64,000 nucleotides of DNA from Candidatus Pyrohabitans jungbluthii (GTDB lineage: Archaea; Hydrothermarchaeota; Hydrothermarchaeia; Hydrothermarchaeales; BMS3B): positions 1-64,000 of the forward strand of contig MTMD02000001.1 of the NCBI GenBank assembly GCA_002010065.2, read 5' to 3'. The translations under genes were made by a program, and so were the position numbers. Shown here piece after piece: positions 39,898 through 61,955 of the stretch. The first letter of the stretch is position 1, and the number at the start of each line of letters is the position of its first letter. The notes beneath the pieces were generated by a model. It saw only the letters and a program-made list of their open reading frames with translations, made no database searches and was not told where the DNA came from.

Positions 39898-40020
39898 GCT
39901 TCCCCTCACAGGCCTGGCCTATAACAATATTTCGTATTATCTTTGTGGTAGGTAATATTAAAAGGTTAGCAAGCACGCTAGGGGGTTCAATTCTGAATCT
40001 ATGATTGCATGGGGTGATAA

Positions 40021-40088
40021 GAACCTTCGGTCAAAACCCTTCGGGTTTTCCCTCACCACTTCGACGGCGAGGGTAACGCTGATGGTTC
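40021..40088 (+). other. Intergenic three-way-junction structure (ncRNA or REP/MITE-like element)
   Basis: GAACCTTCGG/CTGATGGTTC closing stem enclosing AAAACCC-TTC-GGGTTTT and CCCTC...GAGGG hairpins. Confidence 0.45.
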
Positions 40089-40164
40089 ATATGTGGTGAA
40101 CATTTTCGGGAAAAAGAATATCTATCATTATAAATAATGACGGTTTCTCAACGGAGGTGTTTAA

Positions 40165-52418: not shown

Positions 52419-53765
52419 TCAATCCCTCCTGAGTATGAACCTCTTAACCGCAAGCTTCTTCTTCGCTGCCCTTGCAGCAGCTTCCTCTATCCTGCGCCTC
52501 ATCTCAGCCATCATCTCGGGCTCTTCTTCTCCCACAATCTTTTTAACCTTCGTGTACGCTGCCTCTCTGAACTTAGCCTTGAGCTCGCGCTCGCCCTCGC
52601 TGTTCTCAAGGTAAGCTCCTCTGCCTACTTCTACTCTTCCTACCTCATAAACTTTTGCCACACCGCGAAGTGCCGCTTTTACCTCGGCAGCGCTATCCTG
52701 AGGCAGGATGAGCATAAGAGAGTCAGTGCTTATCCCGAGGGGGTCAATCTCAAGCTCCTGAAGCATCTCAAGAACCCTCGGGTTAACCGACTTATAAAGC
52801 TCCTCCTCGTAGAACACCAGCTTTTTGCGAGCGGTGCGGGAGATTTCCCATGCGTCGCCCCGTACACCGCCGTTGGTAACATCGCTCATGGCGTGCACCT
52901 CGCTAAGAAGACTGCGCTCCATCACCGCCTCACATGCTTGCATGAACTCCACATTCAGCGTTTCTTTAACCACGTCGTAGCGCTGGTGGTATATTGCTAT
53001 TGTTGAGACCGTGCCCCCGCCTTTTCCTTCTGTGAGCAGGATAACGTCTCCAGCCTCCGCTTGCCTCCTCGCCTTTGGAGGCTCGCGAGAAGTGCCAACC
53101 GCAGCGACGCTGGCAACGAGGCGCTCACCAAACACCATATCGCCGCCCACGCGCAGCGTACTCCCTGCGACGAGAGGAGTAGAGCAAAGCTCACCCACGC
53201 AGGCTACGCCGGCTGTGAAGTCGAAGAGCTTGCCTATGTCGCCATCATCGGCAAGGTGCAAATCGCTTATAAGCGCTCTGGGTTTAGAGCCCATTACATA
53301 CACATCCCGAAGCGCCGCTCTGGCTGCGTGGAAGCCGGCGAGAAAAGGAAACTCGCTCAAGCGAGAGTGCATGCCGTCAACGGCTACGGTGATGTACCCT
53401 GCCTCGCCGGCTACGACCCCGGCGTCGTCCTGCTGGCGCGCGTCCACCACCGCTTTGGTGGCGCCGATAATCTGGGCCAGCTTGCGGTGCACAAAAAAGT
53501 CGCCCTCGCCGCGAGAGCCAACACCGAACTCGCCCATGCCAACGCCTGCCTCAGCGTAGCCCAGAAGCTCCTGCAGGAAGGTGTCATTCAGCTTACGAAA
53601 GCCTAAGGAAGCCTTCACCTCCTCCACAACAGCACGAGCGAAGCGTAGGCGCTGCTCCTCGCTCCAGTCTTTAAATTCGGCAATGCGCTCCGCAAGTGCC
53701 TCAGCTACCCTGGCTTCATCCTCGCCTTTGAGCAGCCTTTTTCGAACGAATCCTTCAAGATCCAT
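52419..53765 (-). CDS. AIR synthase/HypE-related protein
   Basis: [19 protein letters not shown] (PurM-like fold). Confidence 0.8.
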
Positions 53766-53800
53766 TAACAGCTCCACTCTTTATATATGTCAATACTAAC

Positions 53801-53886
53801 CGGCACGGATGGGGTGATATGGACGGGGAAGGCGTCCTCATAACGGTGAGGATGGGGTAATAGGGGCGGGTGCGGCGCCCCTATAA
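53801..53886 (+). repeat. Two tandem 43-nt hairpin repeat units (locus 1)
   Basis: CGGCACGGATGGGGTGATATGGACGGGGAAGGCGTCCTCATAA and CGGTGAGGATGGGGTAATAGGGGCGGGTGCGGCGCCCCTATAA. Confidence 0.85.
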
Positions 53887-53930
53887 AAAGGTTAATATAT
53901 CGACTGCAATATTTTATAGCGGGTGCTGAG

Positions 53931-54311
53931 ATGAAGGTCAAAGAGATAATGCACGGCATAACTGTGGTGAAGCCAGATACTAGCGTTAAAGAAGTCGCCG
54001 AGCTGATGACGGCGAAGCGCATAGGTTCAGTGCTGGTTGAGCTTGCACCTCTGCGCTACGGCATACTCACAGAGAGAGATATCCTGACCAAAGTCGTGGC
54101 AAACGACGTTGACCCGAAGAGCGTCAAGGCAAAGGAGATTATGACTGAGCTTCGCGTGACCATAGACGCAGAAGCAAGCGTGGAGAAGGCGTCGGAAATA
54201 CTCAATGTGCACCATATCCGCCGCCTGCCGGTGATGAAGGACGGCGAAATCGTGGGCATGGTCACCGCTCGCGACGTGGCGAAGGCGTGCATGAGGTTAT
54301 TCTCAAGGTAG
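53931..54311 (+). CDS. CBS-domain protein
   Basis: Two CBS repeats (GILTERDI, RRLPV). Confidence 0.9.
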   Translation: MKVKEIMHGITVVKPDTSVKEVAELMTAKRIGSVLVELAPLRYGILTERDILTKVVANDVDPKSVKAKEIMTELRVTIDAEASVEKASEILNVHHIRRLPVMKDGEIVGMVTARDVAKACMRLFSR

Positions 54312-61830: not shown

Positions 61831-61955
61831 GAATAGGGGCGCCTTCCCCGCCCCTATCACCCCTTCCGTACCAGTAAGGGCGCCTTCCCCGCTTCGTCAC
61901 CCGGAACCGAGTTCCGGGCAACCCCTATCACCCCATCCTCACCAAGGCGCCGCAC
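61831..61955 (-). repeat. 43-nt hairpin repeat family, locus 2: one partial unit, one unit with a 28-nt hairpin insertion, one full unit
   Basis: Minus-strand unit TGGTACGGAAGGGGTGATAGGGGCGGGGAAGGCGCCCCTATTC aligns without gaps to the units at 53801-53886. Confidence 0.85.

Follow-up and report, generated by a model that had tools for sequence, protein, structure and literature searches.

The two hairpins at positions 53802 to 53887 of the window, the whole 64,000-nucleotide stretch of DNA analyzed here, form one array of a genome-wide repeat. This repeat, here named F1, is a dispersed element whose G-rich leader (17 nt) is joined to a GC-rich 9-bp stem with a 7-nt loop. The array is dispensable, the locus by itself is ordinary, and the array is not a dedicated regulator of the neighboring AIR-synthase-like or CBS-domain gene; annotating it as a regulatory RNA for the genes beside it should therefore be avoided. 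Taken as a whole, the evidence indicates that F1 is probably not a local regulator but a hairpin DNA element of REP-like character, mobile or prone to recombination. By analogy with the REP/BIME, BOX, or TMECO elements of bacteria, its behavior is best read as that of a selfish, or at least dispensable, sequence.

The array comprises two gap-free 43-nt units arranged head to tail on the forward strand (53802 to 53844 and 53845 to 53887), each made of a G-rich leader and a hairpin. As the initial annotation had described, it lies between divergent genes, which carry Pfam labels for an AIR-synthase-related protein (52419 to 53765, reverse strand) and a CBS-domain protein (53931 to 54311, forward strand). 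The motif GG-N3-GGATGGGGTRATA is present in both units, and a manual count finds them identical at 30 of 43 positions, which explains why Tandem Repeats Finder, run with a minimum score of 30, did not report the pair. Unit 1 is a degenerate member of the "AC / GGGAAGG-loop" subtype and matches the R1 covariance model of the family with 55.9 bits. Its stem has 5 bp (GGACG/CGTCC, 53821 to 53825 with 53833 to 53837) around a loop at 53826 to 53832, with two mismatches below, and its single-strand fold is weak (−4.8 kcal/mol and a z value of −1.4 with DNA parameters). Unit 2 is a canonical member of the "GA / GGTGCGG-loop" subtype (R1 match of 65.5 bits), with a leader at 53845 to 53859, a perfect 9-bp stem (ATAGGGGCG/CGCCCCTAT, 53860 to 53868 with 53876 to 53884), and a 7-nt loop at 53869 to 53875; with the same parameters it folds at −10.0 kcal/mol (z value of −3.3). 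The 40-nt core of unit 2 is identical to that of five units from low-GC metagenome contigs.

On the upstream side, a TTTATATA box (53781 to 53788, no strand assigned) is found 13 nt before unit 1 and is a candidate archaeal TATA box. It is retained, as TTTATATG, only in G001, which is the closest relative, and two other relatives (G002 and G004) are not alignable there. On the downstream side, the promoter and leader of the CBS-domain gene (53885 to 53930, forward strand), with TTAATATA at 53893 to 53900 and ATTTTATA at 53911 to 53918, fall outside the repeat. The aligned columns from ATAAAAAGG to the ATG are identical, except for one base, in the window's own genome (G000) and in G001, G002, and G004, and the repeat array stops right at the edge of this near-invariant promoter.

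The genome that contains the window, from an uncultured hydrothermal archaeon, is Hydrothermarchaeota-like, roughly 2 Mb in size, and 99.95% complete, and self-BLAST identifies F1 as its commonest short repeat. It holds 22 full units (nhmmer, E ≤ 2.3e-5) and 26 matches of the R1 covariance model (E ≤ 1), distributed over 17 loci together with 2 degenerate ones. Since all genomes compared are metagenome bins and repeats break assemblies, copy numbers of F1 given here are lower bounds. According to crude open reading frame calls, 6 or 7 of the loci lie between divergent genes, 5 between co-oriented genes in tandem, 2 antisense to genes in tandem, and 3 between convergent genes. Co-orientation of F1 with the chromosome or with genes was rejected, because its strands are mixed along contig C2 and every gene context occurs. 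Several F1 arrays end a few bases ahead of a BRE/TATA-like stretch.

Within the window, the 13-nt leader occurs 10 times with up to two mismatches, against 1.44 expected, and none of 100 shuffles reached 10. The initial annotation had referred to four units, and the second locus that this implies is found at 61833 to 61945 on the reverse strand. Its canonical unit (61833 to 61872, reverse strand; "AC / GGGAAGG" subtype, 69.3 bits) ends 10 nt ahead of a conserved TTTTAAATA box (61822 to 61814) of a gene labeled by Pfam as D-3-phosphoglycerate dehydrogenase. This promoter is conserved in G001 to G004, while the DNA upstream of it differs. The neighboring long unit (61875 to 61945, reverse strand; R1 match of 28.2 bits at 61871 to 61945) shares leader and stem with the other units and carries a further hairpin, GCCCGGAAC/GTTCCGGGT followed by GACGAAG, nested behind its 5′ arm; the unit is absent from G001, where the alignment shows a 66-nt gap. 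The nested module is a member of another family of repeats, in which a T.G in the outer stem is fixed, an inherited mismatch that proves nothing. In different F1 loci, hairpins nested at one and the same stem position differ in sequence and keep their pairing. The leader-like motif GCATGGGGTGATA is also found without a hairpin at 40007 to 40110 (forward strand), where other small hairpin modules (CCCTC...GAGGGTAACGCTGATGG) follow; such modules recur beside units elsewhere in the genome, for instance at the 248505 locus of contig C2.

Comparison with relatives reveals a rapid turnover of the arrays. Among 40 other genomes, F1 was found in four (16 matches in G001, 2 in G003, 3 in G006, and 1 in G008) and 36 have none; two of the four members of the same genus, G002 and G004, are among the latter. 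At 7 of the 9 loci common to G000 and G001, insertions or deletions of at least 39 nt, or swaps of unit type, distinguish the arrays of the two genomes. Over about 250 nt to either side, their flanks are roughly 90 to 97% identical and contain no insertion or deletion of that size. At 53802 to 53887, G001 has a single unit, as unit 1 is missing, and no recognizable unit is present in G002, which has an unrelated hairpin, in G003, which has only 18 nt between the flank matches, or in G004, which has an unpaired remnant. The promoters beside the arrays pre-exist and stay conserved while the arrays vary.

G006 carries two F1 units at a site where G000 has 5 nt, and no clear duplication is apparent when the filled and the empty site are compared. 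Most loci of G000 have an ortholog in G001 and vice versa, and the genus therefore gives no indication that transposition is under way. A search of G000 for the Y1/HUH transposase (PF01797) gave no match, while the control search matched 6 of 14 known genomes, and no multicopy IS-like genes were seen in a self-megablast of G000, in which the repeated genes were judged by eye to be host-like paralogues. These paralogues include cytochrome-like, AAA-ATPase-like, and thermosome-like genes, among others. Neither the ends of F1 nor terminal inverted repeats or target-site duplications could be defined; the unit is asymmetric, with a leader on one side only. Two F1 loci persist in G003 with the element nearly unchanged and flanks about 75 to 84% identical, a pattern that could come from gene conversion or from a host function under selection.

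F1 is also found in other lineages. The scans retrieved 69 loci in metagenomes and 11 in genome collections, and among the 91 loci having enough flank, 55 show a flank GC content of 0.45 or less, compared with 0.49 to 0.53 for the G000 contigs. The 40-mer occurs in low-GC contigs and in genome bins of 0.7 to 1.1 Mb, one of them labeled Aenigmatarchaeota. Eight of the 44 gap-free low-GC units are identical to G000 units at 40 of 40 positions and 19 at 39 of 40, figures that are partly forced because the metagenome search pattern fixed 17 of the 40 positions. Near-identity across such different GC contents argues for a strong sequence-specific constraint, which "junk" does not explain.

Some of these copies reside in tRNA genes. 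Introns of tRNA genes contain 19 of 110 unit hits, in every case on the strand opposite to the tRNA, such that the C-rich complement is present in the tRNA transcript; the orientation control counted 18 antisense against 2 sense. A split-tRNA signature surrounds an insert in the T loop in 18 of 110 unit matches. Unaided, ARAGORN made no call in most of the 30 intron-bearing loci, and a scripted insert-removal test was used for this reason: in silico removal of an insert of 44 to 191 nt restored a tRNA recognized by ARAGORN in 16 of the 18 cases (13 distinct). Three further units lie in anticodon-loop introns called by ARAGORN, four abut tRNA ends, and the Rfam tRNA model matches the 5′ parts in 5 of 20 loci. 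Two pre-tRNAs were folded, of the Asn and Arg genes at L124 and L081. In the minimum-energy fold of L124, a UUCGA/UCGAA helix that has a bulge of 3 nt on its 3′ side prolongs the T stem, and that of L081 has no clear bulge-helix-bulge motif. In G000 itself, ARAGORN found no tRNA intron bearing F1 and an ordinary tRNA set, save for a few calls with long "introns" and a tRNA-like stretch that it left uncalled where a contig begins; the copies in the window are intergenic.

The pairing of the F1 stem is maintained through sequence change. In the 22 copies of G000, four of the nine stem pairs have changed on both sides with pairing kept, and none of 500 shuffles scored as high, which bears out the initial annotation in its reading of the units as hairpins and extends covariation to further copies of the family. 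The compensatory change that it saw between the two units stands only in part. The A-T versus G-C difference in the stem is real, but it separates two F1 subtypes and did not arise in place. Among 64 distinct metagenome rows, only one of the nine pairs varies on both sides, the sequence itself being highly conserved. G-U wobbles were examined as a sign of strand-specific pairing and found uninformative, with G-T about as frequent as A-C mismatches.

A second covariation involves the leader. Of 51 distinct 40-mers, 28 have G at both position 15 and position 21, 21 have T and A there, and 2 are discordant (mutual information [MI], 0.86), so that G at leader position 15 accompanies a G-C pair at 21-39 and T accompanies an A-T pair. 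This exceeds the covariation of the pair 21-39 itself (MI, 0.67). It is also independent of the leader-loop subtypes (MI, 0.12), although the positions are interleaved; these subtypes are themselves coupled through positions 7 and 30 (C and A in 23, A and G in 22, and others in 6). The counts represent nonindependent events, and all four subtype combinations could stem from few ancestral changes.

As set out in the sections of Holder et al. (2015, PMC4666352) drawn on here, purine-motif triplets are G.G-C and T.A-T, and a class I triplex runs from the reverse-Hoogsteen strand through the purine strand to the pyrimidine strand, short loops lying in between. The F1 unit has this order of domains, with GGGGT at 12 to 16, a loop at 17 to 19, AGGGGCG at 20 to 26, a loop at 27 to 33, and CGCCCCT at 34 to 40. 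It also obeys the triplet rule, which allows only G.G-C and A/T.A-T with the third strand antiparallel, with T16.A20-T40, G/T15.G/A21-C/T39, and then G14, G13, and G12 with G22 to G24 and C38 to C36; the T-type variant swaps all three positions for another allowed triplet. In unit 2, the proposed third strand GGGGT corresponds to 53854 to 53858. Judged from the sequence, the covariation of position 15 with the pair 21-39 fits a putative class I purine-motif intrastrand DNA triplex. Two points weigh against it. The series can reach no more than five triplets, as the C25-G35 inversion interrupts it, which is below the 6-nt minimum stem of the ITxF database search (PMC4666352), and the organism in which the triplex must form is presumably a thermophile. 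Two other folds were considered and rejected: pairing of the leader with the 3′ arm is, by reasoning, incompatible with the T-type variant, and in a leader-loop pseudoknot only positions 7 and 29 could form a Watson-Crick pair (C-G in 23, A-T in 17, A-C in 5, and others in 6), as their neighbors cannot pair.

A REP-like element with this architecture may turn over in the following way. On the G-rich strand, leader bases 12 to 16 (GGGG/T, T) would fold back antiparallel onto the purine arm at 20 to 24 and produce a class I purine-motif triplex of five triplets. On DNA made single stranded by replication or transcription, this triplex could cause polymerase stalling, slippage, and template switching, and these in turn would lead to changes in unit number and to type swaps. 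F1 occupies the scarce noncoding space of a compact genome, here between two divergent core promoters, and its whole units and its nested modules come and go at a higher rate than the DNA beside them changes. The likely reason for the intron copies is that, in a tRNA gene, a newly arrived copy survives only where it is removed by the splicing machinery.

A more far-reaching version of this reading is possible, and we hold it tentatively. F1 may be a mobile "purine tail plus hairpin" module whose three-stranded G-strand form is the active one and is kept by selection, and which moves between the Hydrothermarchaeota lineage and low-GC DPANN-like archaea, where it becomes a tRNA intron in the T loop or anticodon loop. 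Selection for the three-stranded fold would account for the covariation from G.G-C to T.A-T. If this is true, the REP-like repeats between genes and the tRNA introns of archaea would be a single element in two guises, and the near-identity across phyla would point to physical contact of the lineages, as in a host-symbiont pair.

It is unlikely that F1 encodes a small structured RNA, or a leader RNA acting in cis, that is expressed from TTTATATA and works via its hairpins and G-rich leaders, for instance by attachment to a protein or to the 3′ end of the 16S rRNA. The hairpins are conserved, pairing is kept even where nested hairpins differ in sequence, a TATA-like box lies 13 nt upstream of unit 1, and the element is certainly transcribed within tRNA introns; there, however, it is the opposite, C-rich strand that is transcribed. 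The small RNA driven from TTTATATA that the initial annotation proposed for this locus is not supported, given that the unit occurs at no fewer than 17 loci without a common upstream box, that unit 1 is missing in G001, and that G002 to G004 have no recognizable unit at this site. Other loci have neither a promoter-like box at a fixed distance nor a common T run after the units, the units are found in all orientations relative to neighboring genes, and their number or type differs at 7 of 9 loci despite flanks that are about 95% identical. The resemblance to an anti-Shine-Dalgarno sequence that was also pointed out is genuine: the 16S 3′ end reads GGATCACCTCCT, to which the leader GGGGTGAT is complementary, one of the pairs being G-U. 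The GGGTTGAT variant, which covaries with the F1 stem, breaks or weakens this pairing yet makes up about half of the distinct copies.

Searches of Rfam found no family for the units, which the initial annotation had not recognized either. The window has no match at the gathering score, matches between 53600 and 54100 are at chance level only (E ≥ 0.3), and nothing covers the units in 10 other F1 loci. The units are likewise not CRISPR, as had been stated, since they abut without spacers; a real array on contig C15 has an unrelated 30-nt repeat with a 66-nt period. F1 is a repeat family of the REP/MITE kind, which comes close to the match with a known Rfam or MITE family that the initial annotation had given as grounds for refutation, but it is not a named family.

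We give low probability to a double-stranded DNA site (operator, upstream activating site, or nucleoid-protein site) through which a host protein would control the promoters nearby or organize the chromosome. With its 9-N7-9 layout, the stem forms a palindrome of 25 bp, as is typical of sites for dimeric proteins, conservation among the metagenome rows extends to the sequence as well as the pairing, several arrays end close to BRE/TATA-like stretches, and the two coupled leader-loop subtypes could mean two protein specificities. However, each compensatory change affects the two half-sites at once, something that a protein reading the sequence would disfavor. The 3′ end of F1 as an upstream activating element next to BRE/TATA was rejected on counts of A/T-rich 8-mers, which are found within 25 nt downstream of F1 in 12 of 17 loci and upstream in a near-equal 10 of 17; in the metagenomes, an 8/8 A/T window within 25 nt downstream is present in only 1 of 64 loci. 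Furthermore, the genes downstream of F1 loci share no common theme, the arrays vary while promoters and genes are conserved, the latter two are retained even by congeners that lack F1 altogether, and tRNA genes in unrelated low-GC archaea contain the unit as well.

A G-quadruplex, in DNA or RNA, acting as a structural switch that competes with the hairpin is very improbable: although the unit is G rich, with runs at 12 to 15, 21 to 24, and 26 to 28 or 29, and related repeats of Methanomicrobiaceae adopt quadruplexes in vitro after annealing in potassium (PMC8044849), the consensus has three G3+ runs, the others being GG, and does not form the four-run G3+ N1-5 pattern that a canonical form of the quadruplex suggested earlier needs, the T type shrinks two runs to GGG along with a change in the C-rich arm that a quadruplex does not explain, and the 9-bp GC hairpin is stable.

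F1 resembles several known systems. The REP/BIME and REPIN-RAYT elements are palindromes of 20 to 40 nt with a conserved tag at one end and are thought to be selfish; some REP classes (CGTC) are presented, in the part of the source drawn on, without a known transposase (Di Nocera et al. 2013, PMC3733652). As described there, they resemble F1 in being palindromic and intergenic, in forming mosaic arrays, and in their patchy distribution between strains, and F1 indeed has many intergenic copies (22 units at 17 loci) that are patchy among relatives. F1 differs in having neither GTAG nor CGTC, its conserved flank being the 17-nt G-rich leader, in a genome without RAYT/Y1 transposase, in units arranged head to tail instead of in inverted pairs, and in an archaeal host.

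TMECO/BoxC repeats of Escherichia coli and other Proteobacteria mark unstable loci (Holder et al. 2015, PMC4666352). As portrayed in the excerpts of that paper used here, they share with F1 the nature of short G/C-rich interspersed repeats, the layout of a purine-motif intrastrand triplex, and the existence of two subtypes, which in TMECO/BoxC tend to pair up; the same excerpts assign them no function. Their copy number varies strongly between close strains, and their loci are more rearranged than controls. TMECO/BoxC repeats are bacterial, have 9-nt stems, and are of class II, with the C-rich arm first and the third strand last, whereas F1 is of class I with about five triplets; TMECO copies often form inverted pairs, whereas F1 units are direct tandems with nested modules.

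In archaea, repeats of Methanomicrobiaceae known as rPQS that have a 3′ C-rich tract form in vitro a hairpin and an antiparallel triplex whose third strand is rich in G (Chashchina et al. 2021, PMC8044849). Like F1, the rPQS are archaeal, interspersed, strictly intergenic, and lineage restricted, and their orientation ignores the neighboring genes. The order of parts is also alike, with a G-rich 5′ part, a short central loop, a G-rich arm, a loop, and a C-rich arm. The rPQS belong to hosts of another phylum and, by that paper's description, differ in sequence, with four G3+ runs and a C3TC3 tract, whereas F1 has a GGGGCG arm and can form only the five triplets. No link to tRNA introns, sharing across phyla, or triplet covariation is reported for them in that paper. 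For the transposed tRNA introns of Thermoproteales, spread at the DNA level is suspected and the mechanism is given as unknown in the portion of PMC4090602 that summarizes Fujishima et al. (2010); F1 differs from the introns described there in being also a common intergenic repeat, in a phylum other than that of the intron-bearing genomes.

The F1 family provides comparative evidence, beyond in vitro work, for a triplex-type fold constraining a natural prokaryotic repeat, whereas earlier work on TMECO and on archaeal rPQS rested on oligonucleotide biophysics. As the fastest-changing sites between close relatives, F1 arrays can serve as strain markers, and since many copies lie at contig ends, the repeat is also a warning for assembly and binning. 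Moreover, F1 ties the intergenic repeat of one archaeal phylum to the tRNA introns of other small archaea through a near-identical sequence, and it offers a concrete element with which the mechanism of archaeal tRNA intron spread can be tested.

The 165-nt gap between a gene for an AIR-synthase-related protein (52419-53765, minus strand) and a gene for a CBS-domain protein (53931-54311, plus strand; both Pfam labels) is occupied by two units of a hairpin repeat, F1, which consists of a 17-nt G-rich leader, a 9-bp stem and a 7-nt loop. The CBS-domain gene heads a run of genes that includes an F420-hydrogenase-beta-like protein (Pfam label) and ORFs that, from reading by eye, we take to be pyruvate:ferredoxin oxidoreductase subunits. 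The two 43-nt units lie head to tail on the plus strand (unit 1, 53802-53844; unit 2, 53845-53887), and both open with GG-N3-GGATGGGGTRATA. Unit 2 has a perfect 9-bp stem (ATAGGGGCG/CGCCCCTAT) and the loop GGTGCGG, and its single-strand fold of -10.0 kcal/mol (z -3.3, DNA parameters) clearly beats shuffled sequences. Unit 1 pairs only through GGACG/CGTCC, with the loop GGGAAGG and two mismatches beneath the stem, and its fold of -4.8 kcal/mol (z -1.4, DNA parameters) shows no clear gain over shuffles. The pair is missed by Tandem Repeats Finder because the units have only 30 of 43 positions in common. The two-unit hairpin described in the initial annotation stands. The leader motif is strongly enriched in the window, with 10 matches against 1.44 expected, a number reached in none of 100 shuffles. 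A search with the same motif revealed a second locus at 61833-61945 on the minus strand, upstream of a D-3-phosphoglycerate dehydrogenase gene (Pfam). An intergenic stretch at 39990-40110 carries an F1-like leader, GCATGGGGTGATA, without the F1 hairpin; after it come small hairpins and a CCCTC...GAGGGTAACGCTGATGG module, which is also seen next to F1 units on contigs C2 and C14.

F1 is a dispersed repeat, and the most abundant short one in the genome of Candidatus Pyrohabitans jungbluthii by self-BLAST (1.99 Mb in 15 contigs). A profile built from the units themselves retrieves 22 full units (E <= 2.3e-5) and some fragments; the units are spread over 17 loci, with two further loci holding degenerate or long forms only. 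Most canonical units are preceded by another unit, often longer or more divergent. In the long units, extra hairpins are nested at fixed places, either after the fourth base of the 5' arm or in the loop. Across the 22 units the stem is 95.4% paired and four of its nine pairs vary on both sides, values reached in 0 of 500 shuffles; the covariation is real. A covariance model (R1) finds 26 matches in this genome at E <= 1, as well as copies in relatives. No Rfam family matches F1 in searches of the window and of 10 other F1 loci.

Some of the hairpins nested in long units belong to a second family, GTTACCC-GTCTC-(variable hairpin)-GATA-GGGTGAC-GAA, which elsewhere forms its own tandem arrays of hairpins joined by GAA (C1 109634-109676, outside the window; C8 334076-334177; C8 249169-249235; C15 15152-15182). 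Its inner hairpin is variable, often GCGAAGC, with covarying stems, and its outer stem has a fixed T.G pair. Other short repeats, such as GGAAGGGGG...CCCCCTTCC palindromes, come directly after tRNA genes (C1 122961-123016; C8 94857-94992; C8 about 249240-249400; C14 20409-20444). A CRISPR array on contig C15 (93978-94271; 30-nt repeat ATTTCAATCCTACATTAGTCTAATTCTGAC, 66-nt period) adjoins a tRNA-Pro gene. An ORF of 3294 codons at C2 536716-546600 has many CxxCH-like motifs and contains a 1.3-kb internal duplication of 96% identity. Likewise, three paralogous genes, each some 500 codons long, look haem-rich; these genes and the ORF were seen as translations only.

The gene contexts of the F1 loci, from crude gene calls (longest ORFs, chosen greedily), are mixed, with six or seven divergent, five tandem co-oriented, two tandem antisense and three convergent. 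Neighbours that, read by eye, are presumably alba, GAPDH, ilvC and ubiD occur, and some loci lie next to tRNA genes. About 190 nt downstream of one two-unit array is the start of the archaeal SRP RNA (Rfam RF01857; C2 about 240017, locus L009 518-551), where the match is partial because the locus stops within it. At the F1 loci of this genome, promoter-like boxes do not recur at a set distance upstream, and the units are not followed by a shared T-run. That the 3' end always abuts a BRE/TATA element was considered and rejected, since an A/T-rich 8-mer is present in the 25 nt beyond the 3' end at 12 of 17 loci and in the 25 nt before the 5' end at 10 of 17; the adjacency is also missing in metagenome copies.

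The distribution of F1 among relatives is patchy. R1 was searched against 40 other genomes of the same genus, family, order, class and domain, and matched two of four in the same genus (16 and 2 matches) and two of three in a second genus of the family (3 and 1); there were no matches in the remaining 33, from a third genus of the family and other families of the order, class and domain. These counts are lower bounds, because the repeats probably break assemblies; several matches are no more than a few hundred bases away from a contig end. Pattern matches in the genome collection include 'Candidatus Pyrohabitans sp. JdFR-17' (NCBI: Candidatus Hydrothermarchaeota).

Within the genus the arrays change fast. 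The first locus has a single, somewhat degenerate unit in the nearest genome (G001), an unpaired remnant in G004 and an unrelated small hairpin in G002, while in G003 the flank matches are 18 nt apart. About 60 nt from the array end to the start codon of the CBS-domain gene and into it (53885-53945; ATAAAAAGGTTAATATATCGACTGCAATATTTTATAGCGGGTGCTGAGATGAAGG...) differ by one base among four aligned genomes, in which the flanking coding DNA is only 77-92% identical. The simplest reading of the alignment is that the array lies between two divergent core promoters. The stretch before the CBS-domain gene is better conserved than a plain promoter requires, and a regulatory site may be present in it. 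At the second locus all five genomes preserve the TTTTAAATA box and the leader of the dehydrogenase gene; upstream of that box G002-G004 have the end of a different gene, and G001 is without the 66-nt long unit. Between the P. jungbluthii genome and G001, seven of nine common loci differ within the array, by indels of at least 39 nt or by replacement of unit subtype, whereas in the same alignments the flanks are collinear and roughly 90-97% identical. In one genome of the second genus (G006), two units stand where P. jungbluthii has five bases. These are GGCGC between adjacent genes (C2 472520-472524, against locus L022 1444-1540), which equals the loop-to-3'-arm junction of F1, and the 'empty' site may be a deletion scar. 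Two loci persist in G003, with the element nearly unchanged between flanks of 75-84% identity, one of them having in its loop a nested module that P. jungbluthii lacks. Together, the gain and loss of whole modules, the type swaps and the local conservation fit slippage, template switching or gene conversion among copies; they do not fit a conserved single-copy function at each locus.

The unit is also found in tRNA introns of other archaea. A scan of metagenome contigs with a leader-based pattern, which fixes 17 of 40 positions, retrieved 69 loci with 76 R1 matches. Flank GC is at most 0.45 at 55 of the 91 loci with at least 300 nt of flank, compared with 0.49-0.53 for P. jungbluthii contigs, and four genome bins of 0.7-1.1 Mb reached via loci of this type hold 9, 10, 1 and 2 matches; one of these bins bears the label Candidatus Aenigmatarchaeota. 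When 44 gap-free low-GC units are compared with those of P. jungbluthii, 8 are identical at 40/40 positions and 19 at 39/40, 17 positions being fixed by the pattern, and five equal unit 2 of the first locus. Behind the unit, many such loci continue with what reads as a tRNA in reverse complement, starting at the T-loop and running backwards. A script that sought a T stem and acceptor stem split by an insert found this signature at 18 of 110 unit matches, against two on the opposite strand with the same heuristic, and removal of the insert (44-191 nt) yields a tRNA by ARAGORN in 16 of the 18. These comprise 13 distinct sequences, for Val, Ile, Gln, Ala, Thr, Arg, Asn, Ser, Cys and one undetermined. 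Three further units lie in anticodon-loop introns called directly by ARAGORN, four abut tRNA ends, and the Rfam tRNA model exceeds its gathering score on the 5' parts at 5 of 20 loci. The pre-tRNA holds the C-rich complement of the unit in every intron case, and the smallest inserts (44-54 nt) amount to about one unit. When two pre-tRNAs are folded to minimum energy, the cloverleaf is retained and the F1 hairpin lengthens the T arm; a clean bulge-helix-bulge motif is not apparent in them. In the low-GC introns F1 is accompanied by a GGAAAGGGGGC...GCCCCCTTCC module, which the post-tRNA repeats of P. jungbluthii resemble. The tRNAs of P. jungbluthii form an ordinary set without F1 inserts by ARAGORN, a few long-'intron' calls being taken as false; contig C13 begins with a tRNA-like stretch that ARAGORN does not call.

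F1 has coupled positions beyond the hairpin. Mutual information (MI) was computed over all column pairs of three alignments, in which 102 of 132 rows are gap-free, giving 51 distinct 40-mers. Positions 15 and 21 of the unit are G,G in 28, T,A in 21 and discordant in 2 (MI 0.86), under a scan pattern that permitted all four combinations (G/T at 15, A/G at 21). The base pair 21-39 is more loosely coupled (G-C 28, A-T 19, other 4; MI 0.67). A second set links leader positions 6-7 with loop positions 29-31, positions 7 and 30 being C,A in 23, A,G in 22 and otherwise in 6. The sets interleave along the unit (6-7, 15, 21, 29-31, 39), are mutually independent (position 6 with 21, MI 0.12), and all four subtype combinations are common. 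Neither simple linkage nor a single conversion tract can keep both couplings, which suggests, without proving, that some constraint acts on combinations of positions; the independent events may be few.

Taken as DNA, F1 has its domains in the order of a class I intrastrand purine-motif triplex, with a third strand at 12-16 (GGGG/T, T), a 3-nt loop at 17-19, a purine arm at 20-26, a loop at 27-33 and a pyrimidine arm at 34-40. An antiparallel third strand would give T16.A20-T40, then 15 with 21-39, then three G.G-C, five possible triplets only. The position-15 triplet would be G.G-C in units with G15 and G21-C39 (G-type) and T.A-T in those with T15 and A21-T39 (T-type), so that this candidate fold could account for the 15/21-39 set. 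Purine-motif triplexes are stated in PMC4666352 not to form in RNA; therefore the fold, if it matters, would act on the G-rich strand of the DNA. A triplex of the complement, as present in tRNA introns, would depend on non-canonical A.A-U triplets.

Among other explanations, a protein operator or upstream site agrees with the palindrome and with the conserved sequence; it is at odds with the compensatory changes, with A/T flanks that are symmetric, with neighbouring genes that have no common theme and with the presence of F1 inside tRNA genes. The quadruplex suggested in the initial annotation needs a fourth G3 run, which the unit lacks. The likeness of the opposite strand to the anti-SD is real, the 16S 3' end being GGATCACCTCCT, but T-type units break the pairing. 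A small RNA, also put forward there, or a leader RNA is weakened by the absence of promoter and terminator signals common to the loci, by the free orientation of the units, by the array turnover and by the use of the opposite strand in tRNA introns; this reading is improbable and not supported.

F1 joins known kinds of element, namely REP-like or triplex-capable repeats and transposed tRNA introns. The rPQS of Methanomicrobiaceae, as described in PMC8044849, share its architecture, with a 3' C-rich tract; their sequences may alter how near the two families stand. Long rPQS oligonucleotides showed the signatures of a hairpin and of an antiparallel triplex and, in one instance, that of a quadruplex once annealed in potassium. 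The TMECO/BoxC repeats of E. coli (PMC4666352) also share the architecture, form triplexes in vitro, vary in copy number between strains and mark loci more rearranged than controls. The literature searched on archaeal REPs, Hydrothermarchaeota genomes, tRNA introns and triplexes, covered mostly as titles and abstracts, describes no F1, no F1 in tRNA introns and no triplet covariation.

The locus between the AIR-synthase-related and CBS-domain genes is thus an ordinary member of an interesting repeat family, lineage-patchy, fast-changing and intergenic in P. jungbluthii. No Y1 transposase is present in this genome, and no IS-like multi-copy gene was noticed among its self-matches. The single-stranded fold, a hairpin and possibly a triplex, may provoke replication slippage and template switching, which would build and remove arrays; copies landing in tRNA genes would persist because they are spliced out. 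F1 would be selfish, or at least dispensable at any single locus. Against dispensability stand the strict conservation of its sequence across very different genomes and the persistence of two loci in G003, both of which might be due to a function in the host or to a partner protein that recognises the sequence.
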